Virus record (IMG/VR): IMGVR_UViG_2778261179_000013 | Coordinates: 1-16,612 of that record | DNA: 16,612 nt | Origin: a virus | Lineage: Duplodnaviria > Heunggongvirae > Uroviricota > Caudoviricetes | Strand: one strand, 5' to 3' | In this document: one piece after another, positions 1 through 15,718 of the stretch | Numbering within the stretch: the first letter of the stretch is position 1 | How the letters are laid out: the number at the start of each line of letters is the position of its first letter | Made by a program: the position numbers and the translations under genes | The notes under the pieces: generated by a model | Database searches by the model: none | Told to the model about the DNA's origin: nothing | The model's input: the letters and a program-made list of their open reading frames with translations, nothing else

Positions 1-891
1 TTACTTTGCAATGAGATCGGGGTCAACTTCGCTAACCCGGCATCGTTTTGACCGGTTGCCCGTCTTTCTTTTTTTCACTTTCGCCAGTTCTTCCGCGGAG
101 TAATGCGACGCGACATCCAGCCGTCGAAGCCCCATTTTGATGTACTCGCTGTTGATCTCAATACCAATGAATTTTCGTCCGCTGGCGATGGCTACGGCAC
201 CGGTAGTAAAGCTACCGGCAAACGGGTCGAGAACGATATCGCCTGGGTTGGAAGAGGCGAGAATAATGCGTTTCAGTAAGGCTTCCGGTTTTTGCGTCGG
301 GTGGTTCTCATATTCATCCATTAAATAACGCACGCGCGGAAAATCCCAGACGTTACCCGGTACTTTTTGATGATTGTATGGCTGTGGAGGATTTTTGCGA
401 TAATCGATCAACGCGCGCTGCGATCCGGTTTTGGCTTCTACCAGAATAGCATCACCGTTGAATGTGTAGTTCTTTGCGTCTTTCACCATCATCAGGATGG
501 GTTCGTACATGGAGCCGTAGTGTTTTTTCGCCTGTACTCCAGAACTGTCATATGACCAGACGATGCGACTTTTGATGGTAAAAAGCTTGCGGCACTGGAG
601 ATCGATAAAGGGCATGTTTTCCGTACTGTTCATAATGTACATGCTGCCCTGCTTTTTCAGAACGCGGTGGCACTCTGCAATCACTTCAAACAGCCAGTCG
701 ATAAACAGATCTTCTTTCCAGGCTTCGATCAGACCATCAAAATTTTTACCGATGTTATACGGTGGGTCGGCAAAGATCAGATCGACGCTTTCAGTAGGTA
801 GCTTTTTAAGTTCGGCAAGGGCATCACCGTGAATAATGGTCTTAGCTTCATTACCAAACCGGGTCGGTTCACATCCTGTTCTCATGGTCAC
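1..891 (-). CDS. yhdJ: DNA adenine N6-methyltransferase, CcrM-like beta-class (YhdJ-like), complete
   Basis: 296-aa ORF with stop codon at 1-3. Motif IV DPPY (FADPPYNIG) lies N-terminal to the AdoMet-binding motif I FAGSFTTG, which is the beta-class permutation; HPTQKP motif also present. From memory the protein is near-identical to E. coli YhdJ, whose gene lies just downstream of fis; the true start may be the second Met (883-885). Confidence 0.8.
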   Translation of the reverse strand: MTMRTGCEPTRFGNEAKTIIHGDALAELKKLPTESVDLIFADPPYNIGKNFDGLIEAWKEDLFIDWLFEVIAECHRVLKKQGSMYIMNSTENMPFIDLQCRKLFTIKSRIVWSYDSSGVQAKKHYGSMYEPILMMVKDAKNYTFNGDAILVEAKTGSQRALIDYRKNPPQPYNHQKVPGNVWDFPRVRYLMDEYENHPTQKPEALLKRIILASSNPGDIVLDPFAGSFTTGAVAIASGRKFIGIEINSEYIKMGLRRLDVASHYSAEELAKVKKRKTGNRSKRCRVSEVDPDLIAK

Positions 892-910
892 TCCCTTTGT
901 GACACCTATA

Positions 911-946
911 AAAAAGGCGCTTCCCCATGCCGAGTAGCGCCTTTTT
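911..946. terminator. Hairpin flanked by A5 and T5 runs (bidirectional intrinsic-terminator-like); probably the fis terminator
   Basis: aaaaaggcgct (911-921) is the reverse complement of agcgccttttt (936-946), with a 14-nt loop. It sits between the MTase start and the fis-like remnant. Confidence 0.5.
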
Positions 947-970
947 AATCAAGCATTTAGCTAACCTGAA

Positions 971-988
971 TTAGTTCATGCCGTACTG
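971..988 (-). other. fis 3'-end remnant (encodes YGMN-stop) and putative att core / island junction
   Basis: The minus strand reads cag tac ggc atg aac taa = Q-Y-G-M-N-stop (stop at 971-973). Fis ends ...KKYGMN. The frame is broken one codon further upstream (tga at 989-991) and there is no fis-sized ORF in 892-1155, so only the last codons are present. Confidence 0.45.
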
Positions 989-1115
989 TCATATTAGCTG
1001 TTTTCATGCTTTTAGATGATTTTAATATTCATATAATAATCAATGTGTTGTATAAATTCATGCCTGTATATTGTTCCAGTGTTTTTCTTTGTTTATGCTA
1101 TTATGTAAGCAATTC

Positions 1116-1137
1116 TGTATAAACATTTGTATAAACA
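1116..1137 (+). promoter_or_regulatory. Direct repeat TGTATAAACA x2 about 20 bp upstream of int; candidate promoter or recombinase/IHF-type site
   Basis: tgtataaaca at 1116-1125 and 1128-1137, within an AT-rich leader; a related tgtataaa lies near 1049. Confidence 0.3.
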
Positions 1138-1155
1138 CTTTGGGCTGGGTGGTCT

Positions 1156-2379
1156 ATGGCTGGCGAACTTAACAAACTGAGCGACAGGAAGTTAAAGGGA
1201 TTACATGGTATCCCGGCCAGTAAGATTGAGTTCTATGCTGATGGTGCCGGGCTGAGCGCCAAGGTAACTAAAGTTGGTGGTATTAGCTGGGTGTTTACTT
1301 ACCGACTCGACGGGCAGAAGCTGCATCGTCTTACTCTGGGACGATACCCGGATATGAGCCTCAAAGAGGCCCGTTCTTCGCGTGATAAATGCCGCCAATG
1401 GCTGGCCTCAGGTAAAGATCCAAAGCACCAGTTGGCGCTGACCACTCAGGAAACGCTTAAACCGGTCACTGTTAAGGAAGCTATCGAATACTGGATACGC
1501 GAATATGCAGAAGAGAACCGCGCGAATGTTGAAAGGCACAAAGCGGAGCTGCGTAAACACATTTATCCTTATATTGGGAAAATGGCGCTCGCTGACTGCG
1601 AAACCCGTTATTGGCTTGACTGCTTTGACAGGATGAAAAAGAAAACGCCAGTTGCTGCGGGTTATGTGTTCCAGATGTGCAAGCAAGCCCTGAAATTCTG
1701 CCGGGTTCGTCGCTATGCTGTGAGTACCGCGCTGGAAGATTTAACAATTCCAGATGTCGGTAAAAAACAGGCAAAAAAAGACCGGGTATTAAACGATAAA
1801 GAGGCTGGCGATTTATGGGCTGCCATTACCTCTGGAACTTGCTTCATGCCTTACTACACCAGGCTACTGACAATCTTAATGGTGTTTGGGTGCCGAACGC
1901 AGGAGGCCAGACTGTCAGAATGGAGTGAATGGGATATGGATGCCTGGGTCTGGACAGTTCCCAAAGAGCACAGCAAGGGCGGCGAGAAGATTGTAAGACC
2001 TGTGCCGGATGCCATGCGCAAATTCATTGAAATACTGCATGATGAAACGAAATTATCCGGCCTTTTGCTTGGGTCGGTTAAAGGCAGTGAAGCGGTAAGT
2101 CAGTGGGGCCGCGGTGTTTATAAAAAGCTGGGGCATTCTGAACCATGGACACTGCACGATCTAAGACGAACTTTAGCAACGCATATGAATAATATGGGTA
2201 TAGCACCACACGTTGTCGAACAGTTGTTGGGGCACTCAATGCCGGGAGTTATGGCGATTTATAACCGTAGTCTGTACTTGCCTGAGAAACTGGATGCGTT
2301 GAATAAATGGTATGACCGTCTCGATATTTTGGCGGGTAATCACTCGAATATTGTTATTTTAAAGGCTGGTGAGAAATGA
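1156..2379 (+). CDS. int: Tyrosine recombinase, P4-type phage integrase
   Basis: 407 aa. N-terminal arm-binding-type region (GLSAKVTKVGGISWVFTYRLDGQKLHRLTLGRYP), catalytic region with HDLRRTLATHM (HxxR) and the LGHSMPGVMAIYNRSLY tyrosine motif. Confidence 0.95.
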   Translation: MAGELNKLSDRKLKGLHGIPASKIEFYADGAGLSAKVTKVGGISWVFTYRLDGQKLHRLTLGRYPDMSLKEARSSRDKCRQWLASGKDPKHQLALTTQETLKPVTVKEAIEYWIREYAEENRANVERHKAELRKHIYPYIGKMALADCETRYWLDCFDRMKKKTPVAAGYVFQMCKQALKFCRVRRYAVSTALEDLTIPDVGKKQAKKDRVLNDKEAGDLWAAITSGTCFMPYYTRLLTILMVFGCRTQEARLSEWSEWDMDAWVWTVPKEHSKGGEKIVRPVPDAMRKFIEILHDETKLSGLLLGSVKGSEAVSQWGRGVYKKLGHSEPWTLHDLRRTLATHMNNMGIAPHVVEQLLGHSMPGVMAIYNRSLYLPEKLDALNKWYDRLDILAGNHSNIVILKAGEK

Positions 2380-2678
2380 AAAAGATAAATAAAATGACCG
2401 AATTACCGAAATGGTTTTCATTGGACAATTACAATTCTATCAATGGGCTGAGTGATCTTGATTTAATTAATCAGTTAGCTATGAGAATGGAAGTTGCTAA
2501 TGATGATTTTGAATGGCTTGATACCTATCCCGGAGCAAGAAATGAGTTCGCTTCATTTATGGAAGAAAGATTTAGTAACCCAATTCGGCCACTGAGCGGA
2601 AAATTATTTGCAGAAAAAATAAAAAGAAAAAATATTCTGAATGGCAAATGGATTCCGTCGGAGGTGTTGAGCCTTTAA
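2376..2678 (+). CDS. Hypothetical protein (AT-rich cargo ORF)
   Basis: 100-aa ORF whose ATG overlaps the int stop (ATGA at 2376-2379). Markedly AT-rich compared with the flanking genes. No motif recognised. Confidence 0.4.
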   Translation: MKKINKMTELPKWFSLDNYNSINGLSDLDLINQLAMRMEVANDDFEWLDTYPGARNEFASFMEERFSNPIRPLSGKLFAEKIKRKNILNGKWIPSEVLSL

Positions 2679-3163
2679 GATTAATTGATGTGATGCAGTT
2701 GTCTAAGAAAGCCGCTCATTATATTGATGAAAATAAAATTAATCGCTCATTGCGTGGACAAAAAAGGTCTGTAAGTAAGACCATAAGCGATAATGATCAA
2801 ATGCATATTACTTTAGATTTGTCTTGGCCTGATGAAATTTTATTAAGCGATTTGGCTGCATTGTTGCCAATATGGCGAATGGATCTTGAAAGGAAAAGTG
2901 AAAATAGTTGTAAGTTAAGTAATAGCTGGAGTGTAATCAAAAAGAAAATATTCGATTGCAAGATATTGCCAATGTTAGACCTTATGGAGTGGGCTAAAAT
3001 TAACAATGCAACAATCACTAACAGAGTTTTATCTTTAGCCCTGTTTCCTAATGCAGAGTATGACGCCATTGGTATCGCTCAAACGATCAAACCGTTCATT
3101 AGAAATTTTTCCGCAGATTTTTCTATAGAAATATTAAAGCGCAAAGCTATGGATTCATTTTAA
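2648..3163 (+). CDS. Hypothetical protein (AT-rich cargo ORF); start uncertain (alternative ATG at 2693)
   Basis: 171-aa ORF in a different frame, overlapping the previous ORF by 31 nt just after an A-rich run (2606-2632). Either a separate gene or the distal half of a frameshifted gene. No motif recognised. Confidence 0.45.
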   Translation: MDSVGGVEPLRLIDVMQLSKKAAHYIDENKINRSLRGQKRSVSKTISDNDQMHITLDLSWPDEILLSDLAALLPIWRMDLERKSENSCKLSNSWSVIKKKIFDCKILPMLDLMEWAKINNATITNRVLSLALFPNAEYDAIGIAQTIKPFIRNFSADFSIEILKRKAMDSF

Positions 3164-3266
3164 TCGGGAAATCCATATAGAAATAATTAAAAAATATCTA
3201 ATAGTGAACCATGCTTTTTAATAGCAAATAATAGCCTCCACAAAACGTAGAAACAGTGGAGGCAAC

Positions 3267-3551
3267 ATGCAAAATATCACCTTTATCCCGCCAAATCCTG
3301 AGCAGCGCCGCACCCTTTTAGAGGAGTACGGCTTTAAGTTCGACCGTCGAATCCGTGAAGAAGAATGTAGCGAGATCACCAGCCTTTCCCGTTCCAGCCG
3401 CTGGAAGATGGAACAGCAGGGGCGCTTCCCTCCGCGCTGTCACTTTGGCCGCAATAGCTGTGCCTGGCTTCTTTCGGATGTGCTCTGGTGGGTTCGTAAT
3501 CCGCCAGCAGTAGAGAACGTCAATAACCCGTACAGCCGCAAATCTGCTTAA
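3267..3551 (+). CDS. alpA: AlpA-family phage transcriptional regulator (helix-turn-helix)
   Basis: 94 aa. EITSLSRSSRWKMEQQGRFPPRCHFGRNSCAWLLSDVLWW matches the AlpA pattern (tGlSRst.Y ... G.FP ... G.rsv.W ... eV..Wl). GGAGG lies upstream of the ATG. Confidence 0.7.
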   Translation: MQNITFIPPNPEQRRTLLEEYGFKFDRRIREEECSEITSLSRSSRWKMEQQGRFPPRCHFGRNSCAWLLSDVLWWVRNPPAVENVNNPYSRKSA

Positions 3552-3571
3552 TTAACTACAGGTAATCGAAT

Positions 3572-4378
3572 ATGGAAAAAATAACTGCCTTGGCTGGCAG
3601 CGGCCAAACTCACCCCGAAACCAGCCAGAAAGATATTTCCAGCGATAATTTTGCTGCCCGGATCCCTGTAACCATGAGCACTATTGGTGGGAAAGAAACT
3701 CAGTCTGTAAGTGGTCGTAAGCTGCATACGTTTCTAGCTGTAGGGCGAGACTTTACCACCTGGATGAAAGCACGCATCAAACAGTATGGGTTTGTTAAAG
3801 GGGTTGATTATGTAATTGTTGAAGATTTGAGCACCCCAAAACGGGGGAGCGCAAAATCTCGCCAACAAGTCGAGCACGATTACATTGTCAGCCTGAATAT
3901 GGCTAAAGAGCTTTCTATGGTTGAGCGCAACGCGCAAGGCAAGATGGCCCGCCAGTATTTCATCGACTGTGAAGAACGTCTGCGCCGCGTAGCACCAGAG
4001 GAACATGAGGCGGCGTTGTTGGGCTGGCGTAAAAATCGTGTAGCTGCCTGCGAAGATCATAAGAGTATGGCCGATGCAATGAAGGGCTATATCGAGCGCA
4101 CCGGCGACAGGCAGCACGGCTTTGCCTACAGCAATGAATGCTCGTTCCTGAATAGCCTTGTGCTGGGTATGCACCCGCGAGTGTGGGCGAAACAGAAAGA
4201 AATTCCAGTTAAGCTGGTGCGTGACCATATGAACGCCGATCAGCTGGCGCTGCTGGCTTATCTGGAAAGCCGTGATTGTGCTCTGCTGGATCTTGATACC
4301 CGTACGGCAACCCGTAAGGCGAAACTCACCGAACTGGCACAACGCTGGCTGGTTAAGCGTGTTGGAGGTGCTGAGTGA
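3572..4378 (+). CDS. Phage antirepressor-like protein (AntA-type N-terminal domain)
   Basis: 268 aa. SGRKLHTFLAVGRDFTTWMKARIKQYGFVKGVDYVIV resembles the AntA/AntB antirepressor N-terminal motif (sARdLH.fL ... F..W ... ygF.eg.Dy). The C-terminal half is unassigned. Confidence 0.55.
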   Translation: MEKITALAGSGQTHPETSQKDISSDNFAARIPVTMSTIGGKETQSVSGRKLHTFLAVGRDFTTWMKARIKQYGFVKGVDYVIVEDLSTPKRGSAKSRQQVEHDYIVSLNMAKELSMVERNAQGKMARQYFIDCEERLRRVAPEEHEAALLGWRKNRVAACEDHKSMADAMKGYIERTGDRQHGFAYSNECSFLNSLVLGMHPRVWAKQKEIPVKLVRDHMNADQLALLAYLESRDCALLDLDTRTATRKAKLTELAQRWLVKRVGGAE

Positions 4379-4708
4379 TTTTGCATAACTCAATCAGGGT
4401 TGCGCAGAATTTGAGCCGACGAAATTCGCACGCGCAAATCAAGCTCGGTGATATGCCGAGTTTGAACAACCGCGTACTTTTAACGTACGGACATAGCAAC
4501 CCATTGAATCATCTTAATTATCGCGAAATGCGAGAATTGGCGAGCAACGAACACGAACAGTATTCGGGTTCGCCTGAACATCAACACTGCTTAGGTTCAG
4601 AGGTTCCGACGAATAACGTAGAGAGCTGCAATGGCAGCGCATTTTTGCTCTACGAGGGAAATCAACAACGTACAGTTTTGTACCGTAATCCAGATTTGGC
4701 TTACGAGA

Positions 4709-4768
4709 GGGTAGTACCTCAAAGTCACGAGGTTAACAGGGTAGTAACTCATAGTTACCAGGTTAACC
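4709..4768. repeat. Tandem direct repeat, 2 x 30 bp (25/30 identical), each unit containing GTTAAC
   Basis: gggtagtacctcaaagtcacgaggttaaca (4709-4738) and gggtagtaactcatagttaccaggttaacc (4739-4768). The units carry different internal stems (ACCTC/GAGGT in unit 1, GTAACT/AGTTAC in unit 2). Confidence 0.8.
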
Positions 4769-4877
4769 GCGTCGCTAAAAGATACGCGGAAAGCAAGACC
4801 TCTTTAAGAGGGGCAGTTCAGTGCGTGGAGACCTACGAAATTTTCGTAGGTCACAGCATTACCGAGAGTAACCCTGT

Positions 4878-5063
4878 TCAGCTTTCAGATTCCGATCTGG
4901 CTTTCTTGCGTTGGCGGCGTTTGATCTCGCATTGCATGGCTGTAACGATAAATTGGGCAGTGCTTTCGCCTTGCTCTTTAACTTGTTCCATTGCCTCGAC
5001 AACTTCATGCGGGGCACGAGTTTGCAATTTTTGTGATTTTTCGTTCTTTGTTCCCGTCGCCAT
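4878..5063 (-). CDS. Ribbon-helix-helix (Arc/CopG/MetJ-like) transcriptional regulator, probable island repressor
   Basis: 61 aa from the ATG at 5061-5063 (minus), preceded by AGGAGA with a 7-nt spacer. QKLQTRAP-HEVVEAMEQVKEQ-GES-TAQFIVTAMQCEI fits the RHH beta-strand / helix A / G-x-S turn / helix B pattern. The supplied ORF track starts it at a TTG at 5084. Confidence 0.65.
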   Translation of the reverse strand: MATGTKNEKSQKLQTRAPHEVVEAMEQVKEQGESTAQFIVTAMQCEIKRRQRKKARSESES

Positions 5064-5081
5064 TACTAAGTCTCCTGATAT

Positions 5082-5190
5082 CAAGTGGAGTACAGAATAC
5101 CAGAAAAATAATGAAATAAAACACTTGAAGTGGATTCCACTTTGTATTTATAGTGGAGTCCACCTTGAAGGGGTTCACCTTCAAGATATA
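5082..5190. promoter_or_regulatory. Divergent promoter/operator region with interleaved inverted repeats (half-sites AAGTGGA / TCCACTT and CACTT / AAGTG)
   Basis: cacttgaagtg (5122-5132) and aagtgga-t-tccactt (5128-5142) are overlapping palindromes; agtggagtccac (5152-5163) and ccttgaagg plus caccttcaag (5161-5185) follow. The region lies between the RHH gene and the rightward operon. Confidence 0.55.
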
Positions 5191-5261
5191 GCGAAGCCCG
5201 GCAGTGCGCGAACACTAACCGGGCCTCTGACCACCAAGATAGTTAACGTATCGAGGCAGCT

Positions 5262-5450
5262 ATGAAAGATTATATCACACACCCGCAAGGGCGGAAGTCC
5301 TACACCTGGCGTTTTCTGGCGCTGAGCGCCATCGGTCGCAACGTCATTCACATCAAAGCTACCACCGAACGCGAAGCCCGTGAGCAATCACCGGCTGGCT
5401 GCGTGATGGTATTCGCTGGCCGTCTGCCTGTGGAGGTGCGCCATGCGTGA
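5262..5450 (+). CDS. Hypothetical small protein (first gene of the rightward replication operon)
   Basis: 62-aa ORF with GAGG 5 nt upstream of the ATG; overlaps the next ORF. Confidence 0.5.
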   Translation: MKDYITHPQGRKSYTWRFLALSAIGRNVIHIKATTEREAREQSPAGCVMVFAGRLPVEVRHA

Positions 5451-5637
5451 GCCAATCAGCTTAGACCAGGCAGAATACAAATCAGCGCTGGCTGCTTCAC
5501 TTTTCGAAACCATTCTGGAAAAAGCCTGTGCTGAGTGTTCGGAAACCCTGCTGAACCATATCTCACTGGCATGTGACCTTAATCAGGAAATTCACCGGGC
5601 ATTAATCGCCGAGCTGGGTATGGGAGATGCGAAATGA
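5443..5637 (+). CDS. Hypothetical small protein
   Basis: 64-aa ORF with GGAGG 6 nt upstream of the ATG; its stop overlaps the next start (ATGA at 5634-5637). Confidence 0.5.
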   Translation: MREPISLDQAEYKSALAASLFETILEKACAECSETLLNHISLACDLNQEIHRALIAELGMGDAK

Positions 5638-5852
5638 GACAGGTTCCTTTTGAAGTCCTGATGCACGCTGAAAATGCCCTTTCTGAAAGCGAAGGAGCCT
5701 ATGAGGTTCTCAGCATGTGGCTAGACAGTATTCCTGAAGGCGAGGAGTTCCACGGTGAAGCGTGCAAGGTAAGCGCAATCATGTCGCTGCTGCATAAATC
5801 TATCGGCGAGCTGGTGAAAGCGCGGGAGGCTTACAGTGAAAAACGCGCCTAA
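5634..5852 (+). CDS. Hypothetical small acidic protein
   Basis: 72-aa ORF with GGAGA upstream; overlaps the start of the replication gene. Confidence 0.5.
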   Translation: MRQVPFEVLMHAENALSESEGAYEVLSMWLDSIPEGEEFHGEACKVSAIMSLLHKSIGELVKAREAYSEKRA

Positions 5853-7605
5853 CGTGAAAACCCTCCCACGCGACAAAATGGAGGAGGCCATCATCTTTGC
5901 CGGAACAGGAGCATGGAAAGCAGCTCAGGATTACCAGAAAGGTAAAGATGAGCATGGCGATGAGGTGCCGCCGGTTGTTCTGGATCATACCCAGCTGGCG
6001 GAATTACCCCACCTGCGCATTGTTGATAAAGGACGCCGATTTGCCCGTGTCTGTCAGGCCGGACTTATCGAACAAAACCAAATCAGTATGATTGCCAATA
6101 AGTTGTGTGAGGCTGGCGTTACCAATGCTGAGTTTATCAACGAAAAAGGTGAGAAAGAGGACTGGACGCCATTAATGAAGCGTCTGGAAGACGAGCCCCT
6201 AATGGTGACTACGAGGGGTAGCGCTACGCCAGCGCTTAACCAGATGGGAGCCAGCCAGCGCGGGGAAGTTCTGCTTGCTCATTACGATGGCAATCTGGCG
6301 ATCCATGCTGATTCCGACACGGTTCATCATTACAACGGCGTGGTGTGGGTTCCGCTTTCGGATAAAGAGCTGCAGCGAGAAATGGCGCAAATTTTTATTG
6401 ATGCCGAAGTCGCCTATTCGCAGAACGCGATTAAATCCGCTGTCGATACAATGAAGCTGGGTCTGCCAGTGATGGGTAACACAGCCCGAAATCTTATTGG
6501 TTTCAGCAACGGGGTTTTTGATACCCGGTTAGGGCAATTTCGACCACATGATAAAAAGGACTGGCTTATCGTTGCGAGCGAATTGCCATTCAGCGAACCA
6601 GCAGAAGGAGAGACTCTGGCAACCCATGCGCCGAACTTCTGGAAATGGCTCCGCCGCTCTGTGGCGGATAATGACAGAAAATCAGACCGCGTACTGTCTG
6701 CTCTGTTCATGGTGCTGGCGAACCGGTACGACTGGCAGCTGTTTCTTGAGGTAACGGGGCCGGGCGGAAGTGGTAAAAGTGTTATGGCTGAGATCTGCAC
6801 GATGCTGGCCGGCAAAGCCAATACGGTATCGGCAAGCATGGCGGCGCTGGAGAACCCAAGGGAAAGGGCGCTGGTGGTTGGCTATTCGCTGATTATCATG
6901 CCGGATATGACCCGGTACGCTGGCGACGGCGCAGGGATTAAAGCTATCACTGGCGGGGATAAGGTAGCTATCGACCCTAAACACAAAGCGCCGTATTCAA
7001 CGCGTATTCCGGCAGTGGTGCTGGCCGTCAATAACAATGCCATGTCATTCAGCGACCGAAGCGGTGGTATTTCGCGTCGTCGGGTTATTTTTAACTTCTC
7101 AGAGGTGGTACCGGAAAACGAACGTGATCCTATGCTTGCCGAGAAGATTGAAGGTGAGCTGGCCGTTATCATTCGCCACCTGCTTACTCGCTTTTCCAGA
7201 CAGGACGAGGCCAAACAGCTTTTGCATGAGCAGCAGAAATCAGAAGAGGCGCTGGCCATCAAACGTGAAGGGGATTCACTGGTGGACTTTTGCGGCTACC
7301 TGATGGCTTCGGTCGTATGTGATGGCATGTTTATCGGGAACGCCGAGATCGTACCGTTCAGCCCGCGCCGTTATCTGTATCACGCTTATCTGGCTTATAT
7401 GCGGGCTAACGGCCTGAGCAAGCCGGTGTCGCTGATGAGGTTCGGCACGGATATGCCAGGCGCAATGGCTGAATATGGCAAGGAGTACCAGAAGCGCAAA
7501 ACAAAACATGGCATAAGATCAAACGTCACACTTCACGACGATTCAGAAGACTGGATGCCTATGTGGAATGATACTTCTCACAATACCGGAGAAAATCAAA
7601 AGTAA
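5836..7605 (+). CDS. Replication initiator / SF3 helicase of the P4 alpha (D5-like) family (PICI pri-rep-like)
   Basis: 589 aa. Walker A VTGPGGSGKS, a Walker B-like LIIMPDMT region, and a D5_N-like segment (IGFSNGVFDTRLGQFRPHDKKDW). GTG start at 5836 is preceded by GGGAGG with a 7-nt spacer. No EGYATA-type primase motif seen in the N-terminal ~300 aa. Confidence 0.85.
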   Translation: MKNAPNVKTLPRDKMEEAIIFAGTGAWKAAQDYQKGKDEHGDEVPPVVLDHTQLAELPHLRIVDKGRRFARVCQAGLIEQNQISMIANKLCEAGVTNAEFINEKGEKEDWTPLMKRLEDEPLMVTTRGSATPALNQMGASQRGEVLLAHYDGNLAIHADSDTVHHYNGVVWVPLSDKELQREMAQIFIDAEVAYSQNAIKSAVDTMKLGLPVMGNTARNLIGFSNGVFDTRLGQFRPHDKKDWLIVASELPFSEPAEGETLATHAPNFWKWLRRSVADNDRKSDRVLSALFMVLANRYDWQLFLEVTGPGGSGKSVMAEICTMLAGKANTVSASMAALENPRERALVVGYSLIIMPDMTRYAGDGAGIKAITGGDKVAIDPKHKAPYSTRIPAVVLAVNNNAMSFSDRSGGISRRRVIFNFSEVVPENERDPMLAEKIEGELAVIIRHLLTRFSRQDEAKQLLHEQQKSEEALAIKREGDSLVDFCGYLMASVVCDGMFIGNAEIVPFSPRRYLYHAYLAYMRANGLSKPVSLMRFGTDMPGAMAEYGKEYQKRKTKHGIRSNVTLHDDSEDWMPMWNDTSHNTGENQK

Positions 7606-7860
7606 TGGGAAAAGTGTTCACCACTATTCACTGTGGATAAAATCGTTTATATAACAGATATTTAAGGGGTGAACACTTTTTATTGAAGTGTTCACCAAGT
7701 ATTCACCTGTTCACCTTTAAAGGGCTTTTCTTTTAAAAGGTGAAGGGTTAGGGTGAACACTAGTGAATACTTAAAATTATAGTCTTCACCCTGTAACCAT
7801 ATGAATTTGAATGGAAAAAATGCAAAGGTGAACAGGTGAACACTTAAACGCATATTTTTT
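7606..7860. repeat. Iteron array and AT-rich tract; putative origin of replication (P4 ori/crr-like)
   Basis: At least 10 copies of GGTGAACA(CTT) or its reverse complement (AAG)TGTTCACC, e.g. 7612-7622, 7668-7678, 7686-7696, 7709-7716, 7751-7760, 7826-7833, 7834-7844, plus variants (tattcacc, gtgaatac, cttcacc), followed by T-rich runs at 7852-7866. Placement immediately 3' of the replication gene is typical for these satellites. Confidence 0.75.
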
Positions 7861-7878
7861 ATTTTTACGAGGCTGCAT

Positions 7879-8223
7879 ATGGAAATTTTAGGCAACCATA
7901 ACGACAAGTTTCACGGCATCAAATTTCTGCATAGTGCAATTGAAGAAATGAATGAGAAAGCTGAAGTAACTCTGACCGACTATCTGGCTCTTAGGGCTTT
8001 TGTTCTGGCTGAGCGAAGAGAAACTCAGGACTACATTGATGCAATGGATGAAACGTATGCTGATTTGCCCGATGATCTGCGTTCTTACATTGAGCTTCTT
8101 AATGACGTTGCCGCACAGCTATCAAATCCATCACGCTCAAATGGGAATTTAAAATCAATTATTTACGATGCGAGAATATCAAGCGGAAACGCCATGTCTC
8201 ACTGGTTCAGTGTTGATAGATAG
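7879..8223 (+). CDS. Hypothetical protein (AT-rich cargo, gene 1 of a two-gene cassette)
   Basis: 114-aa ORF with ACGAGG 6 nt upstream of the ATG. Acidic and predicted helical; no motif recognised. Compositionally distinct from the flanking replication and head genes. Confidence 0.55.
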   Translation: MEILGNHNDKFHGIKFLHSAIEEMNEKAEVTLTDYLALRAFVLAERRETQDYIDAMDETYADLPDDLRSYIELLNDVAAQLSNPSRSNGNLKSIIYDARISSGNAMSHWFSVDR

Positions 8224-8246
8224 TAAAATCTAAGAAGGGATAACTA

Positions 8247-9092
8247 ATGCGTACTAATGATGATTTACAGATAATCCGAAAGCATCTGGATGGTGAATTT
8301 GAACAGCGCCTGTTAGACGCTGCGATCAATAACCTTTTGGATGAAAATAATCAGCTTCGGTTCAGCAATTATGCCTATGCACTTAGAGAGCTATTCTTAC
8401 ACGTTCTAAAACGCATGGCACCTGATGAAAATGTTCAACTATGCGAGTGGTTTCCTGGTTTGAATGAAAGAGAGCAGGTTGCAAGAAAAGACTCTTACAA
8501 ATATATCATTCATGGTGGGTTAAGTGATGAATATGTCAGGGATGTACTTGATGTAAATATTGCCGGAGTAATTCCGGGATTGCGTGATGCGTTCTACTCA
8601 TTAAATAAATTTACTCACATAAGCGAAAAGATTTTTCCAATTAATGATGACGATGGCCTAAAAATGGTGGGAGAGGTTGAAGGTTGCATCGGAGCTCTTT
8701 TCACCAAGCTTGATGAGTGTCATAAGGAGATAATTAATAAGCTTTATGAAGCTGTGAGTGAGGCCGCGATACATAGTTCGATAACTGAAACTGTAACATC
8801 AATTGATATTTTATCGACACACAGCTCGGTTGATGAAGTGTATGTTGATGATGTGAAAATAGTAGAAATAAATGACTCTGAAGTAATTTTCTCTGTTAGT
8901 GGCTCTGTAGGTGTCGGGTTGCAATGGGGATCTAATTCCGATTTGCGAAATGACATAGGTGCTGTAGGTAGAGAAACATTCCCATTTACCTGCGAGGTGA
9001 GAAGTCCAGTGTATGCCCCTGAACGTTTAGAGTGTGATGAAGGGGCATTCCATGCAGATACTTCAAGTTGGTGGGAAGGATATTACGACTAA
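8247..9092 (+). CDS. Hypothetical protein (AT-rich cargo, gene 2 of a two-gene cassette)
   Basis: 281-aa ORF with AAGAAGGGA upstream of the ATG. Helical N-terminal region containing an R-x4-H motif (RELFLH) and a beta-rich C-terminal region. Followed by an intrinsic terminator. Confidence 0.6.
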   Translation: MRTNDDLQIIRKHLDGEFEQRLLDAAINNLLDENNQLRFSNYAYALRELFLHVLKRMAPDENVQLCEWFPGLNEREQVARKDSYKYIIHGGLSDEYVRDVLDVNIAGVIPGLRDAFYSLNKFTHISEKIFPINDDDGLKMVGEVEGCIGALFTKLDECHKEIINKLYEAVSEAAIHSSITETVTSIDILSTHSSVDEVYVDDVKIVEINDSEVIFSVSGSVGVGLQWGSNSDLRNDIGAVGRETFPFTCEVRSPVYAPERLECDEGAFHADTSSWWEGYYD

Positions 9093-9128
9093 CAAGTGTA
9101 AATTATTCGTCCTCGCGTTTATTAGTGC

Positions 9129-9160
9129 TTAGCCCGATAAAATTCGGGCTTTTATTTATT
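9129..9160 (+). terminator. Rho-independent terminator after the cargo cassette
   Basis: Stem agcccg (9131-9136) / cgggct (9145-9150) with an 8-nt loop, followed by tttatttatt (9151-9160). Confidence 0.6.
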
Positions 9161-9324
9161 ATTTTCATGTATATGTTGAGAAGTGGCACTCAGACGTGAG
9201 CCGCCACTGGCCGTTAAATCAAGCTGTAGCGAGTACAGCCTGTGGGATGCAGAAAAAGATTTAACGGCCTCCCCTCCAAGCGCTGGTTTCACGTCTCTAC
9301 GTTAATTGATACGGAAACCACTCC

Positions 9325-10491
9325 ATGAAGAAACTACTCGAATTACGCCAGCAGAAAGCCACACTCAAAACCCAGATGCGTTCCATGCTGGACAAAGCCG
9401 ACACCGAAAAGCGCAGCCTGAACGAAGAAGAGGGCAAAAAGTTCGATGAACTCCGCGCCCAGGCTGATGCGCTTGAAGTTGAAATTACCCGCCTCGAAGC
9501 CGTCGCCGACGATCAGCGCAATCTGCCTGGTACTTCCGTTGAAGGTGAGCTAGTAAGCAACGACGAGCTGCGTCACTACATTATGACCGGTGATACCCGT
9601 TCTCTCTCCACGCTGGTGCAGGCTGACGGCGGTTATACCGTTATTCCTGAACTGGACAAAGAGATCATGCGTCAGTTGCAGGATGATAGCGTGATGCGCT
9701 CCATCGCAACGGTAAAGACCACCAAAACCAACGAATACCAGAAACTGGTATCTGTGGGCGGCACTACCGTTAAGCGCGGTACCGAAGGCGAAGCGCGTAC
9801 CGAAACCAGCACGCCGAAGATGGAGCGTGTTGATATCAAACTCAACCCGATCTACGCCTATCCGAAAACCACTCAGGAAATTCTCGACTTCTCTGAGGTG
9901 GATATTCTGGGCTGGCTGTCTTCTGAAATTGCCGACACCTTCACCGCTACCGAAGAGAGCGACTTTGTGAACGGCGACGGTGATAAAAAATCCAAAGGGT
10001 TCCTGTCTTACCCTCGCGCGGCCACAGCCGATAAAACCCGCCCGTTCGGTACGCTGGAGAAGATGGAAGCTGCTGACGTTTCCTCTGATGGCCTGATCGA
10101 CCTGCTGTATAAGCTGAAAGCCAAATACCGCAAAAACGCCGTATGGGTGATGAACTCCAATACCGCGGCCAAACTGCAAAAGCTGAAAAACGGCAACGGG
10201 GATTACATCTGGCGAGATCGTCTGGTTGCCGGTTCTCCCGATACGCTGCTGGGCCGTCCGGTTCAATATCTCGAAACCATGCCAGATGCGGAAGCAGGTG
10301 AAGCGTTCCTTGCTGTGGGCGACTTCAAACGCGGCTATTTCATCGTGGATCACACCACTGGTGTGCGTACCCGTCCTGACAACATCACCGAACCGGGTTT
10401 CTACAAGGTACATACCGATAAATACCTGGGCGGCGGCGTGGTGGACTCCAACGCCATCAAGGTGCTTGAGCTTTCCGGCTCCGGTTCCTGA
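9325..10491 (+). CDS. Major capsid protein, HK97 family (with N-terminal delta/scaffold-like coiled coil)
   Basis: 388 aa. N-terminal coiled-coil region (LELRQQKATLKTQMRSMLDKADTEKRSLNEEEGKKFDELRAQADALEVEITRLEA) and HK97-MCP-like core blocks (GGYTVIPE ... AVWVMNSNTAAKLQKLKNGNGDYIW ... LLGRPV ... GDFKRGYFIVDH). Confidence 0.9.
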   Translation: MKKLLELRQQKATLKTQMRSMLDKADTEKRSLNEEEGKKFDELRAQADALEVEITRLEAVADDQRNLPGTSVEGELVSNDELRHYIMTGDTRSLSTLVQADGGYTVIPELDKEIMRQLQDDSVMRSIATVKTTKTNEYQKLVSVGGTTVKRGTEGEARTETSTPKMERVDIKLNPIYAYPKTTQEILDFSEVDILGWLSSEIADTFTATEESDFVNGDGDKKSKGFLSYPRAATADKTRPFGTLEKMEAADVSSDGLIDLLYKLKAKYRKNAVWVMNSNTAAKLQKLKNGNGDYIWRDRLVAGSPDTLLGRPVQYLETMPDAEAGEAFLAVGDFKRGYFIVDHTTGVRTRPDNITEPGFYKVHTDKYLGGGVVDSNAIKVLELSGSGS

Positions 10492-10539
10492 TTTGACGTT
10501 TGAGGGGCTTAGGCCCCTTTTCTCCTGTGGAGTCCAACA

Positions 10540-11100
10540 ATGAAAACAATTGATTTTGAAATCCGCACCTCCGATCTGAGCGCCAGTAACAAAAAGCTGG
10601 TGGGCTATGCCGTGCGCTGGAACAGTCTCTCTGAAATTATCTGGGACGAGTTCCGCGAGCAGTTTGCGCCGGGAGCGTTTAAAGACAGCCTGGCATCAGG
10701 TAGCGATGTGCGTGCGCTGTACGAGCATAACTATACCCAGCTGCTGGGCCGCACTAAATCCGGAACGCTGGTGCTGTCCGAAGACGATACCGGGCTGCGC
10801 TTCGAGCTGACCCCGCCGAATACCCAGCTTGGTAACGATGTGCTGGAGCTGGTGGAGCGTGGTGATATCTCCGGCATGAGCTTTGGTTTCCGGGCGCTGA
10901 AAGAGGCGTGGGATATCGGCCAGTCTCCATACCTGCGCACTGTTACCGCAGCCGAACTGCGGGAGATTACCGTTACCTCTATGCCTGCTTATCCTGAGTC
11001 TGGCGTGGAAATCGCGCACCGTTCGCTTTTCTCCCAACATCCTGAACTGCGCCGCGCTGGCGATAACCGTCGCCGCTGGGCTGAATTAGCGGGGCTCTGA
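10540..11100 (+). CDS. Prohead maturation protease, HK97 family (S78-like)
   Basis: 186 aa. LVGYAVRWNS ... FAPGAFKDSL ... LYEHNY ... GMSFGF fits the HK97 prohead protease pattern, including the candidate His and Ser residues. Confidence 0.85.
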   Translation: MKTIDFEIRTSDLSASNKKLVGYAVRWNSLSEIIWDEFREQFAPGAFKDSLASGSDVRALYEHNYTQLLGRTKSGTLVLSEDDTGLRFELTPPNTQLGNDVLELVERGDISGMSFGFRALKEAWDIGQSPYLRTVTAAELREITVTSMPAYPESGVEIAHRSLFSQHPELRRAGDNRRRWAELAGL

Positions 11101-11101
11101 T

Positions 11102-12337
11102 ATGTGGAATATCTGGCCGTTTGGCCGCAAGTCTGAACCCTCTGAGCAGCGCAGCATGACCATTGATGAATTTCTGGCGATGGCAGGGATTCCAAATACC
11201 GGATCAGGCGAGTATGTGTCTGCGGGTACTGCGGAATCTCTGCCGGCGGTCATGAACGCCGTATCAGTTATCAGTGAGGCGGTGGCAACAATGCCATGCT
11301 ATCTCTACCGCGTCCGTAATGATAATGGTCGTGAGGCGCGAGAATGGCTGAGTAATCACCCGGTGGATTTTCTCCTGAACGAGCAGCCGAACGACTGCCA
11401 GACGCCTTATCAGTTTAAACGCACGATGATGCGCCATTGTCTGCTGAACGGTAACGCCTATGCGGTGATCCAGTGGGGCCGCGACGGCCAGCCGCAATCC
11501 CTGCACCCGTATGCGCCGGGGGCGGTTGTTCCTGAGCGTATCGGCCAGCATAAGTACAAATACACCGTTACAGAGCCGTTTACCGGGGCTGTGCGCACCT
11601 ATCTACAGGAAGAGATTCTGCACCTGCGTTACTCCACCGATGATGGCTTTCTGGGGCGTTCGCCTATTACTACGTGCCGTGAGGCGCTGGGGTTAGGTCT
11701 GGCCCAACAGCGCCACGGTGCCAGCATTATGAAAGATGGCATGATGGCGGCGGGCGTCGTCACTACTGCTGAATGGCTCGACAGCGTGAAGGGTAAGCAG
11801 GCTCTGGACGCACTGGAGCGCTACAAAGGTGCCAGAAATGCCGGGAAAACGCCGATCCTTGAAGGTGGCATGGATTATAAGCAGCTGGGCATGAGCAATC
11901 AGGATGCCGAATGGCTGGCCTCTCGTCGCTTCACCATTGAAGACATTGCCCGCATGTTCAACGTGTCGCCTATCTTCCTGCAGGAATACAGCAACAGCAC
12001 CTACAGCAATTTCAGCGAAGCGAGCCGCGCCTTTCTTACCATGACGATGCGCCCGTGGCTGGCGAACTTCGAACAACAAATCAAATCTGCGCTGCTGGTG
12101 GCCTCCCCAGTCCCAGGAACCCGTTATCAGGTGGAGTTTGACTCTGCTGACCTTCTCCGCGCCACGCCAACCGAACGTTATGCCACTTATGAGCGCGGTA
12201 TTAAGAACGGGATCATGAACCCGAACGAAGCCCGAGAGCGTGAGGGGATGCCACCGCGTGAAGGTGGTGACGAATTCAGCCAGGCATGGAAGCAGGAAGT
12301 GAAGATCAGCAAAGACGGCAAGGAAGGTGACGCATGA
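11102..12337 (+). CDS. Portal protein, HK97 family
   Basis: 411 aa. Conserved blocks LLNGNAYAVI, GFLGRSPI, FTIEDIARMFNVSPIFLQE and NPNEAREREGMPP match the HK97-type portal pattern. Its start is 2 nt after the protease stop. Confidence 0.9.
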   Translation: MWNIWPFGRKSEPSEQRSMTIDEFLAMAGIPNTGSGEYVSAGTAESLPAVMNAVSVISEAVATMPCYLYRVRNDNGREAREWLSNHPVDFLLNEQPNDCQTPYQFKRTMMRHCLLNGNAYAVIQWGRDGQPQSLHPYAPGAVVPERIGQHKYKYTVTEPFTGAVRTYLQEEILHLRYSTDDGFLGRSPITTCREALGLGLAQQRHGASIMKDGMMAAGVVTTAEWLDSVKGKQALDALERYKGARNAGKTPILEGGMDYKQLGMSNQDAEWLASRRFTIEDIARMFNVSPIFLQEYSNSTYSNFSEASRAFLTMTMRPWLANFEQQIKSALLVASPVPGTRYQVEFDSADLLRATPTERYATYERGIKNGIMNPNEAREREGMPPREGGDEFSQAWKQEVKISKDGKEGDA

Positions 12338-12672
12338 GAGCCGGGGGGCTGAGAAGCCGCGTCACTATTCGGGTATTCACTACCCACAGGGAGCCGTCCG
12401 GTCAGGTTGTTCAGGTCTGGGAAGACGGGGAAACCATATGGGCTGAGGTTAAGGGGATCAGTGGCCGAGAGTTAATGGCGTCAGGTGCCGAGGTTGCCGA
12501 AGCGACGATCCGCGTTTGGGTGCGTTTCCGCCGTGATATTACCGCAGCCAACCGTCTGAAAGTGCTTACTGGCCCGTTTGCTGGCAGCACTCTCAATATT
12601 ATCGGGCCTCCTATTCCTGATTCGGAAGGTACCCGGCTGGAAATTCTCTGCAAGACAGGAACGGAAAAATGA
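12334..12672 (+). CDS. Head-tail adaptor / head closure protein (SPP1 gp16-like)
   Basis: 112 aa; RVTIRVFTTHREPSGQVVQVWEDGETIWAEVKGISGRE fits the head-tail joining family pattern. ATGA overlap with the portal gene. Confidence 0.7.
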   Translation: MRAGGLRSRVTIRVFTTHREPSGQVVQVWEDGETIWAEVKGISGRELMASGAEVAEATIRVWVRFRRDITAANRLKVLTGPFAGSTLNIIGPPIPDSEGTRLEILCKTGTEK

Positions 12673-12962
12673 CAGCAGAAATCACCCTGGATGAAGCAAA
12701 GCTGCATTGCCGTATTGATGATGATTACGAAGATACGTTGATACAGGCGTACATCGATGCGGCGCTGGAGGTTTGCCAGAAGCATATCGGCAAGCGGTTT
12801 GATAACGGGCTGGAGTTTACGCCAGCTATCAAGATTGGCTGTCTGATGTACGTATCTCAGCTGTACGAGTACCGCACGATGATTGGTGATACCGACGCCA
12901 AAGAGATACCGATGGCTGTCTCTGCGTTGTGGTCTGTCTATCGTGATGTGGGGGTGTACTGA
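12669..12962 (+). CDS. Head-tail connector protein (gp6-like)
   Basis: 97 aa; ITLDEAKLHCRIDDDYEDTLIQAYIDAALEVCQKHIGKR ... YEYR fits the gp6-like connector pattern. ATGA overlap with the upstream gene. Confidence 0.7.
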   Translation: MTAEITLDEAKLHCRIDDDYEDTLIQAYIDAALEVCQKHIGKRFDNGLEFTPAIKIGCLMYVSQLYEYRTMIGDTDAKEIPMAVSALWSVYRDVGVY

Positions 12963-13405
12963 TGCCGTGGCAACCACTACGCCGGTGCAATGAGCCTGGA
13001 TGTAATAAACGGGTGAAGTCTGGCAAGTGTGACGAGCATAAGCGGGATGCCCGCCGACAAAGCGACAGCCGAAGAGGTACGCGAACAGAGCGTGGTTACT
13101 CCAACCGCTGGGGCGAATACCGTCGTCATTTTCTAAAAGCTAATCCGCTGTGTGTCCATTGTCTCAAGGCTGGCGTCTATGCATCGGCAACTATCGTCGA
13201 TCACATCATCCCTATCGAGGGTGAAGCTGATGTGCTGTTCTGGCCCGCCAGTAATCACCAGTCGTTATGCGCTGCCTGTCATGGACGGAAGACAACCACA
13301 ACAGACCCGGTGACGAAGCAGCAGCGTAAAGCCGGTAAGTTCCGCGAGCAGGAAGAAGCAGCACGTCATCGCACCGACTGGATCTATGAGGCAAACAATG
13401 ACTGA
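12962..13405 (+). CDS. HNH endonuclease (packaging-associated)
   Basis: 147 aa. Cys-rich N-terminus (CNEPGCNKRVKSGKCDEH) and an HNH core (CVHC ... DHIIPIEGEADVLFWPASNHQSLCAACHGRKT). Position next to the terminase genes is typical of HNH-cos packaging systems. Confidence 0.85.
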   Translation: MPWQPLRRCNEPGCNKRVKSGKCDEHKRDARRQSDSRRGTRTERGYSNRWGEYRRHFLKANPLCVHCLKAGVYASATIVDHIIPIEGEADVLFWPASNHQSLCAACHGRKTTTTDPVTKQQRKAGKFREQEEAARHRTDWIYEANND

Positions 13406-13550
13406 GCAGGAACAGCAGCGGCTGATTAGTGGGCTGATAAAGCAGCGTGAGTCATGGCAACCAGCCAGACAGAGAGCGCATAAGAAGCCCGTAGCAAAGC
13501 GCATGAGCCAGCGTGACCGGGAGCTTATGGAATGCTTTCGCAACCGCTGA
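13398..13550 (+). CDS. Possible small basic protein (50 aa), unannotated in the ORF track
   Basis: The ATG at 13398 overlaps the HNH gene end and the frame is open to the TGA at 13548-13550, giving MTEQEQQRLISGLIKQRESWQPARQRAHKKPVAKRMSQRDRELMECFRNR. Below the track's length cut-off; low support. Confidence 0.3.
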   Translation: MTEQEQQRLISGLIKQRESWQPARQRAHKKPVAKRMSQRDRELMECFRNR

Positions 13551-13680
13551 CAGGCCGAATGGACGGGGTGGGGGAGGTTTTAAAGACAAACCCCTCTCAG
13601 CGAGGAACCACCCGCCCCCTCAAATTTTTACGCACGGTGATTTTTTTGAAAATAAAACGCGACGGAAACGAGAAATTTTT

Positions 13681-14037
13681 ATGGCAAGACCACCCAAACC
13701 GCCAGCTTACCTTGATGAGTTAGCTGCGCAGCAGTGGAAAGCGAAGGCGAAGCAACTGGCGGAGCGCGGGGATTTGACTCCCGCCGACTGGAACAACCTT
13801 GAGCTTTTTTGCGTCAACTATTCGATGTACCGCAAAGCCGTGGAAGACCTTGCCAGCCGTGGGTTCAGCATTGTTAACAGCCAGGGCGGTGAGAGCCGAA
13901 ATCCGGCGCTGAGCGCAAAGGCCGATGCTGAAAAAATCATGATTAAAATGTCGTCGCTGCTGGGCTTTGATCCGGTAAGCCGCCGCCGGAACCCGGTGGA
14001 AACGGAGGAGGAAGACGAGCTTGACCGTCTGGAATGA
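13681..14037 (+). CDS. terS: Terminase small subunit (P27-family-like)
   Basis: 118 aa from the ATG at 13681: MARPPKPPAYLDELAAQQWKAKAKQLAERGDLTPADWNNLELFCVNYSMYRKA ... The track ORF from 13513 adds an implausible Gly-rich N-terminal extension, so the internal ATG is preferred. Confidence 0.8.
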   Translation: MARPPKPPAYLDELAAQQWKAKAKQLAERGDLTPADWNNLELFCVNYSMYRKAVEDLASRGFSIVNSQGGESRNPALSAKADAEKIMIKMSSLLGFDPVSRRRNPVETEEEDELDRLE

Positions 14038-15682: not shown

Positions 15683-15718
15683 TAGTGCTTGAACTTTTCA
15701 AATTGTCACTGTAATTCT

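Follow-up and report, generated by a model that had tools for sequence, protein, structure and literature searches.

A stop-free reading frame across the immunity region of an Escherichia coli satellite appears to be selected for translation rather than for its peptide

The stretch of DNA analysed here (the window) comprises positions 1 to 16,612 of IMG/VR virus record IMGVR_UViG_2778261179_000013 and shares 99.9% identity with an island in the chromosome of Escherichia coli ABW_S38, where it is inserted beside yhdJ/acrS. Its genes run in the order integrase, DUF6387, AlpA-family regulator, AntA/AntB, about 500 unannotated bases, a minus-strand YlcI/YnfO gene, an Icd-like gene, two small genes and primase. 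After the primase come capsid, protease, portal and head-completion genes, as annotated in the ABW_S38 locus by the Prokaryotic Genome Annotation Pipeline (PGAP). Judged by this content (int, alpA and primase together with its own capsid genes, ~15 kb), the window is an E. coli satellite of the capsid-forming phage-inducible chromosomal island (PICI) type; a related element, vB_KppS-Ant, is on deposit as a 16.5-kb genome from induced particles. Our subject is a plus-strand open reading frame (ORF) that starts with GTG, runs for 296 codons plus a stop and spans the unannotated bases, the minus-strand gene and the approach to the Icd-like gene. It stands in a mechanical ORF list as a product of 296 aa and was not called by PGAP in the ABW_S38 locus. 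The frame, referred to below as the bridge ORF, and its neighbours are as follows.

3267-3551, plus strand: alpA-family regulator of the upstream (left) operon (Pfam Phage_AlpA PF05930, 39.9 bits; helix-turn-helix regulator according to PGAP in ABW_S38)
3572-4378, plus strand: AntA/AntB antirepressor-family gene, antA (Pfam AntA PF08346, 83.6 bits), its stop overlapped by the start of the bridge ORF
4364-4368, plus strand: GGAGG, a Shine-Dalgarno-like motif seen in the sequence 6 nt 5' of the GTG
4375-5265, plus strand: bridge ORF, putatively like eta of satellite phage P4; an open frame coupled at both ends, with homologous open frames in relatives
4379-4877: spacer between the convergent antA and repressor-like genes, a mosaic of hairpin cassettes that is read as the first 168 codons of the bridge ORF
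4878-5063, minus strand: YlcI/YnfO-family gene of 61 aa at the position of an island repressor (NCBIfam NF041551 YlcI_YnfO_N, 67.8 bits; phrog_949)
5262-5450, plus strand: Icd-like/Kil-family gene of 62 aa, icd (NCBIfam NF033153, 62.5 bits)
5443-7605, plus strand: downstream operon of two small genes (5443-5637 and 5634-5852) and primase (5836-7605); from icd to primase each start overlaps the preceding stop

An earlier note on this DNA had singled out the frame as unlikely to be free of stops by chance, and the counts bear this out. Between 4375 and 5262 there is no stop in the ORF's own frame, against 22 and 20 in the other two plus-strand frames and 10, 17 and 11 in the minus-strand frames, and none of 20,000 dinucleotide-preserving shuffles stayed open (analytic estimate ~3e-10). 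The couplings described in that note can likewise be read in the sequence: the GTG overlaps the TGA of antA as GTGA (4375-4378), the TGA of the bridge ORF overlaps the ATG of icd as ATGA (5262-5265), and GGAGG precedes the GTG by 6 nt. The junction between antA and the ORF, GTTGGAGGTGCTGAGTGA, is kept in 12 other loci.

The layout of the window recurs in two E. coli relatives, L002 and L003, whose flanking genes are different. There the frames are 336 and 344 codons long, begin on the stop codon of a Rha-type gene (TGATG), continue in frame into icd and differ from the window by indels of 27 and 54 nt. A protein search with the translation returned 522 database proteins of 190-470 aa from many enterobacterial genera, with identity ranging down to ~40%, some of which are named as long 'Icd-like' proteins. 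Because a protein database holds only open frames, the loci were collected again with the 62-aa Icd-like protein as the sole anchor. Upstream flank was available for nine close genome relatives (from Cedecea, Enterobacter, Intestinirhabdus, Klebsiella (two), Superficieibacter, Rahnella, Rosenbergiella and E. ruysiae), and all nine were open for 670-1620 nt 5' of icd and in frame with it. Among 72 metagenome loci whose flank was long enough, ~70 carried a comparable open frame; at least 600 nt were open in 64 and 507-567 nt in 4 more, 2 had a window-type or other frame, and in 1 the frame started from an upstream gene lying closer by. With 12 IMG/VR loci added, the combined set amounted to 93 loci in 67 clusters at 90% identity. 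The record of vB_KppS-Ant (L113, LR881103, 2206-3180) annotates an icd-fused bridge ORF of 325 aa and omits the minus-strand repressor-like gene.

The N-terminal parts of the frames in L004 and L009-L012 are dissimilar to that of the window, yet open. Across 16 sampled loci the frame contained no stop, compared with 3-38 in each other frame, and almost no shuffles were open. Within the spacer, codon phase was retained in 97% of aligned columns, and 70% of the gaps of at least 6 nt were multiples of 3. In almost all loci the frame begins with a start codon that either shares bases with the stop of the upstream gene or adjoins it (RTGA, TGATG, ATGnnTAA and similar); the partner there is antA in the window, one gene after alpA, and alpA itself in Pectobacterium-type and short-type loci. 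These comparisons indicate that the frame has been kept open by selection and is not a chance ORF.

Several endings occur at the icd side. In ~90% of the relatives the frame continues in frame into icd. In Pectobacterium and Samsonia its start lies on the stop of alpA (ATGA); it then passes antisense through the repressor-like gene and over icd in a different frame, and is fused in frame with the gene that follows icd, as is likewise the case in a P4-like Buttiauxella locus (L018). In the alignment of the icd leader, a single C at ~5237/5238 that in-frame relatives have is missing from the window, and it is because of this 1-nt deletion that the window ORF ends as ATGA on the icd start and is not nested with icd. 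The same C-terminal ending recurs in database proteins with different N-terminal modules (P0002 and P0020); therefore, the unfused variant is viable. Since the ending can be an icd fusion, a stop on the icd start or a fusion to the next gene, it would be the transit of ribosomes that matters and not a particular product.

The earlier note had also described the frame as running antisense through a small well-formed gene and operator repeats. This is the case for the 67.8-bit YlcI/YnfO match at 4878-5063 and for three repeats beside it, which accompany a candidate promoter.

5083-5162: three operator-like repeats of 12 nt, AAGTGGAGTACA, AAGTGGATTCCA and TAGTGGAGTCCA, partly inverted, over the rightward promoter
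5125-5154, plus strand: sigma-70-like promoter inside the bridge ORF, TTGAAG, 18-nt spacer, TATAGT (consensus match alone)

By position and consensus, 5125-5154 is a candidate for the early promoter of the icd-primase operon and would be the positional analogue of P4 PLE. In every locus the third codon positions of the frame and of the minus-strand gene coincide, with position 1 of the gene facing position 2 of the frame. The same phase was seen across several unrelated small-protein families, including YlcI/YnfO-like proteins, DUF3950-like proteins and HicB/Arc-like ribbon-helix-helix proteins ending GIEPKG. This third-on-third antisense frame was open in 62 of 62 representatives and the other permissive frame in 1 of 62; in synonymous resampling of the 62 representatives, the former was open in ~42% of trials and the latter in 36%. 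As far as these sequences tell, the overlap is cheap to maintain but clearly maintained. In L003 (5283-5435, minus strand) and L010 (1458-1610, minus strand), a second minus-strand gene lies downstream of the repressor-like gene and is crossed by the open plus-strand frame with the same wobble phase. Its product, a hydrophobic peptide of 50 aa (MNWLLHTLPGRILIALIILWILYQFGFF...), could be a membrane peptide or toxin-like.

Selection on the encoded peptide was assessed by codon position in the part of the ORF that overlaps no other gene, from its start to the stop of the repressor-like gene. Mismatches at first, second and third positions were 7.1/6.5/7.4% among 21 loci and 10.9/9.7/12.5% among 61 cluster representatives. 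By the same method the control genes gave 4.3/7.6/21.0% (icd), 4.5/1.9/22.5% (primase) and 4.0/3.8/11.7% (ant/Rha), and the repressor-like gene in its own frame gave 13.6/9.1/30.6%; the third-position excess in the neighbouring genes is 3-10 fold. A codon-usage score trained on the large genes of the window was -0.02 for the frame, with seven of eight small window genes at 0.28-0.45 and the eighth (12962-13402) at 0.11. AlphaFold2, run with an alignment of 47 sequences, produced no confident fold (mean predicted local distance difference test score 38.6, predicted template modelling score 0.17), and the translation had no match in Pfam, NCBIfam or PHROG. Codon-position conservation and a profile search of the 296-aa translation had been proposed as checks in the earlier note; the former finds no third-position bias in the spacer, so that the coding option is unsupported, and the latter came back empty. 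Conservation in the C-terminal half follows the repressor-like gene (the same mismatch pattern, backwards), the operator repeats and the icd leader hairpins, and by these alignments the apparent protein conservation there is the mirror image of other features.

The frame is thus not a conventional overlapping gene, and its peptide is unconstrained. From the proposal of a real overlapping gene, what stands is that the frame is open by selection across relatives; what falls is the gene in the usual sense, as the frame fails every test of amino-acid selection. Very probably, it is selected to be translated, with the peptide being irrelevant. That it instead encodes a functional protein, be it a factor resembling Eta or a long form of Icd whose N-terminal region is tolerant or disordered, seems to us distinctly unlikely. 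Codon positions show no meaningful bias apart from a slight third-position excess in the larger set (12.5% versus 10.9% and 9.7%), which would fit such a protein, codon usage is like that of non-coding DNA, and there is no confident fold or domain. The 522 matching database proteins, some of them 'Icd-like', and the 325-aa ORF annotated in vB_KppS-Ant also speak for a protein, as does the existence of a Pfam family, Phage_ASH, for the eta region of P4. Set against them, the N-terminal parts are mosaic or unrelated, the window lineage is unfused to Icd while others are fused to a different gene, and much of the apparent conservation mirrors the repressor gene and DNA or RNA elements.

The spacer and the icd leader are rich in predicted secondary structure.

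4625-4650, plus strand: terminator-like hairpin GCTGCAATGGCAGC followed by GCATTTTTGC (consensus scan), which only some relatives have
4708-4767: tandem repeat of 2 x 30 nt, each copy a hairpin; the copies are 87% identical and occur in 3-9 loci
4830-4852: perfect 11-bp palindrome within a 33-nt cassette that is absent from L002 and L003
5196-5256, plus strand: icd leader, with hairpins at 5196-5224 and 5238-5252 followed by the Shine-Dalgarno motif GAGG at 5253-5256

The hairpins named in the earlier note are all present (CTCGG/CCGAG at 4444-4460, CCTCTT.AAGAGG at 4799-4811 and the 11-bp palindrome). Folding z-scores relative to shuffles were -3.4 for 4379-4640 (plus strand), -5.0 for 4620-4880 (plus strand) and -6.0 for 4379-4880 (minus strand), and the consensus scan found terminator-like hairpins on both strands. 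Cassettes have been gained, lost or swapped between loci, as units of 27, 33, 48 or 54 nt or as equal-length exchanges of hairpins. Among ~110 loci, 4375-4630 is shared by ~25-30, 4645-4735 by ~10 and 4735-4855 by 3-6. The earlier note had suggested covariance analysis of the hairpins, and this divides the region in two. In the spacer, folding the shared block to a consensus gives a covariation term of +0.21 and few compensatory pairs. The icd leader does covary: an alignment of 32 loci contains compensatory changes from AU to GC in 7, from GC to CG in 4 and from AU to UA in 8. The leader stretch is conserved in ~70 loci, belongs to no Rfam family and is likely, from this pattern, to be a regulatory 5' untranslated region (UTR) element of the icd-primase operon. 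For the spacer hairpins, a role as 3'-end structures or terminators of the two convergent transcripts is plausible.

Four other accounts of the spacer were considered and dropped. A first impression of nucleotide-level conservation (~94% identity to an unrelated island) gave way in a paired test, with 8.1% divergence in the spacer against 4.2% at third positions of antA. Dispersed repeats, of the repetitive extragenic palindromic or miniature inverted-repeat transposable element kind, were rejected as the origin of the hairpins, the spacer occurring once per genome and in 5 of 5426 E. coli genomes. A minus-strand gene within the spacer is contradicted by 10-17 stops per minus-strand frame, and the short ORFs there are not kept across loci. 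As to an immunity RNA in the manner of P4, Rfam yielded nothing at the gathering threshold across the window, and neither C4 nor isrK appeared in 4300-5300 with E allowed to reach 10; the scans of the window and of 4300-5300 returned insignificant matches only, for example symR at E = 0.045.

The idea of the earlier note that this is a structured non-coding region, perhaps with a P4-style immunity RNA, is therefore upheld as to the density of hairpins, which exceeds that of shuffles, and not as to the RNA, neither CI/C4 nor isrK being found. That the region is purely non-coding (a 3' UTR, terminators or a small RNA), with a frame open by composition or by chance, is highly improbable. Such a region would account for the hairpin density, for the terminator-like hairpins on both strands, for substitutions that are uniform over codon positions and for an ORF that PGAP left uncalled. 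It would not account for the phase-specific absence of stops in 67 clusters, non-homologous segments included, which cannot arise without translation, nor for indels that preserve phase and stop/start overlaps at both ends. Moreover, no Rfam family is found, and the spacer is not conserved beyond neutral expectation.

A comparable frame has been described in satellite phage P4. The NCBIfam profile NF033153 (phage_ICD_like, cut-off 25) scores 62.5 bits with the Icd-like protein of the window and 76.1 bits with P4 Kil; BLASTP and tblastn of the window Icd against P4 Kil gave no alignment, and the profile is the sole link between the two. In the P4 genome (NC_001609), kil forms the last 65 codons of a frame of 199-214 codons, eta, whose three ATGs overlap the stop of orf88/alpA (GCATGATGATG), with an ATGA overlap like that seen elsewhere. 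The passages on P4 in PMC10111431 (2023) give a summary of Forti et al. (1999): eta contains a constitutive promoter whose transcript is ended early through CI RNA and seqA; Kil is a truncated Eta, the full eta being translated only from an upstream late promoter and in coupling to the alpA homologue; and translating eta keeps termination from occurring, with the result that the late transcript reads through. Immunity RNAs are, according to the same passages, hosted by P4 eta and also by some of the 'Bro zone' genes of PICIs. Among 51 unique P4-type loci from IMG/VR, the part of eta 5' of kil has mismatches of 9.1/10.5/9.4% at the three codon positions and kil 4.2/2.8/15.1%; by this measure P4-type eta shares the 'open but unconstrained' signature of the window frame. 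Rfam places C4 (CI RNA) and isrK (seqA) inside P4 eta and, in the Buttiauxella locus L018, at the corresponding site, and finds neither in any locus with a minus-strand protein gene.

Like P4 eta, the bridge ORF is a long frame that begins on the stop of an alpA-operon gene and ends as or at a Kil/Icd-like gene, with an immunity determinant and an internal promoter (here a candidate by consensus match) inside it. In P4 the determinant is a sense CI RNA, whereas in the window it is an antisense gene for a repressor-like protein in fixed wobble phase. Window-type loci further differ in the intercalated ant/Rha gene and the ~500-nt spacer of hairpin cassettes, and the window ORF is contiguous and coupled with icd, ending as ATGA, and not nested with it. 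The earlier note's analogy with P4 accordingly holds for the ORF, as the counterpart of eta, and breaks down for the CI RNA. It rests on position and function, because there is no sequence homology to the N-terminal part of P4 eta. Databases use the name Phage_ASH, or 'ash family protein', for the translated eta region of P4-like elements, and the window ORF is unmatched by this family. The part of P4-type eta that defines Phage_ASH (P4 locus L020 8365-8767, minus strand; L114-L193) has no codon-position bias, unlike kil, and the Ash family may reflect conservation at the nucleotide level (CI RNA, seqA) and not a protein domain. In the P4 RefSeq record NC_001609, the kil/eta region at 8168-8584 is labelled 'cI gene product, transcriptional repressor', and the 'cI' label has been carried into PHROG names for Icd-like proteins (phrog_6196 and phrog_1743).

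Taking these comparisons together, we consider it probable that the frame is an eta-like bridge ORF that works by the full anti-termination mechanism. In such a mechanism, the alpA-antA operon would be transcribed and the transcript would read through past antA, and ribosomes ending antA would re-initiate at the overlapping GTG. They would translate ~0.9 kb devoid of a sense-strand gene, that is the hairpin spacer, the repressor antisense, the operator and promoter and the icd leader, and would terminate exactly on the icd start codon, where most relatives continue in frame into icd. Continuous ribosome cover would guard the read-through RNA from Rho- or hairpin-dependent termination and from decay, and the transcript would reach the icd and primase operon independently of the repressor-controlled internal promoter. 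The sense-strand CI RNA of P4 would be replaced here by a protein-repressor gene on the opposite strand, with the overlapping readings sharing wobble positions.

A number of points weigh against this account. Transcription through 4375-5265, translation of the frame and the role of Rho are all things that we infer, and the plus strand has no obvious C-rich, G-poor tract resembling a Rho utilization (rut) site. The abundance of hairpins is left unaccounted for by the bridge model, and hairpins would rather impede ribosomes. In the segment overlapping the repressor, taken by itself, an open antisense frame is not improbable (~0.42 per gene). The window ORF has no Phage_ASH (PF10554) match at E <= 0.01, compared with 82 bits for P4 eta, and the P4 experiments (Forti et al. 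1999) are taken from the summary in PMC10111431. Stops or frameshifts in homologous islands, by which the earlier note would have the coding interpretation judged, do occur: nearly all islands are open, but two metagenome contigs carry a 1-nt frameshift, one of them being the same contig as an IMG/VR locus, and the frame of the Pectobacterium locus L017 stops inside icd.

Translation of the frame could also have been selected for another purpose, such as the tuning of the amount of toxic Icd/Kil by ribosomes passing over the icd ribosome-binding site, the production of an inactive, N-terminally extended Icd isoform, or support for the read-through RNA in interfering with the convergent repressor mRNA and thereby flipping the switch; we regard this as unlikely. 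Like the anti-termination mechanism, it needs no conserved peptide, and it fits the facts that the frame always traverses the hairpins and Shine-Dalgarno motif of the icd leader, that the product is an Icd fusion in most loci, and that transcription of the repressor gene is convergent with the frame. Three interchangeable endings weigh against any single isoform, and the sole experimental precedent, P4 eta as summarised in the passages cited above, concerns anti-termination.

The anti-termination mechanism has parallels in systems where translation controls the fate of a transcript. In leader and upstream ORFs it is translation, and not the product, that governs Rho-dependent termination; these ORFs are tens of codons long and lie in 5' leaders. 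The bridge ORF resembles them in that selection would act on ribosome occupancy with the peptide largely irrelevant, and differs in spanning 220-500 codons, in lying between two operons and in overlapping a gene on the opposite strand. In the immI region of phages P1 and P7 (c4 RNA-icd-ant), translational repression of icd reportedly leads to Rho-dependent termination before ant, a finding attributed to Biere, Citron and Schuster (1992). The icd ribosome-binding site is there reportedly the target of a controlling antisense RNA; an Icd-family gene heads the operon, translation of its first frame determines if transcription goes on, and consecutive genes are joined by stop/start coupling. The window has a long upstream bridge ORF and an antisense protein gene, neither of which immI is known to contain, and no match to the C4 RNA family. 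Antisense overlapping genes of enterobacteria likewise comprise a long ORF opposite an established gene with third positions paired; they are claimed to encode functional proteins, whereas the bridge ORF has no amino-acid constraint beyond that of the sense gene.

Two observations concern the left part of the island. The DUF6387 gene (2376-3163) is split in the window into ORFs 2376-2678 and 2648-3163 by a 1-nt deletion in a run of A at ~2627; it is intact in the otherwise 99.9% identical ABW_S38 locus, and the window copy is either a pseudogene or a sequencing error. The Rfam int-alpA RNA (RF02996) lies between int and alpA in L004 (1618-1686), L007 (1827-1892), L012 (2075-2143) and L013 (1538-1605), and was not found in the window, even at E <= 1 in 2300-3700.

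The class of mechanism proposed here is already known from P4. We found no description in the literature of a bridge ORF running antisense through a protein-repressor gene in fixed wobble phase, no account of missing protein-level constraint in such ORFs, those of the P4 eta type included, and no report of the near-universality of the bridge ORF in Icd-anchored loci; the papers on EcCIMP1 and on capsid-forming PICIs leave the antisense-repressor variant unmentioned. Whether P4-like and PICI-type satellites of Enterobacterales share a translated bridge that crosses the immunity cassette, from the alpA operon to the replication operon, is in our estimate an even call. If they do, the cassette would be either a sense immunity RNA, as in P4, or an antisense repressor gene that, by way of its wobble positions, has co-evolved to show no stops in the reverse reading. 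Through translation-protected convergent transcription, induction would in that case get round the repressor and might silence it, and these islands would hold a large natural class of ORFs in which nothing but translation itself is selected.

The finding points to a widespread regulatory device, present in at least 67 clusters from E. coli, Klebsiella, Enterobacter, Citrobacter, Salmonella, Cedecea, Rahnella, Pectobacterium and others, and would extend the P4 result of 1999 to PICIs and capsid-forming PICIs. It also accounts for a problem of annotation, in which hundreds of 250-470-aa proteins are recorded as 'Icd-like' or hypothetical and some annotations include the long ORF at the expense of the real repressor gene; the Pfam family Phage_ASH may have the same origin as the long 'Icd-like' annotations. 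The bridge ORF offers a natural example of antisense overlap in which one of the two readings is constrained only to lack stop codons. For the biology of these satellites, it suggests a way in which induction could escape a protein repressor, by transcribing and translating through the repressor gene.

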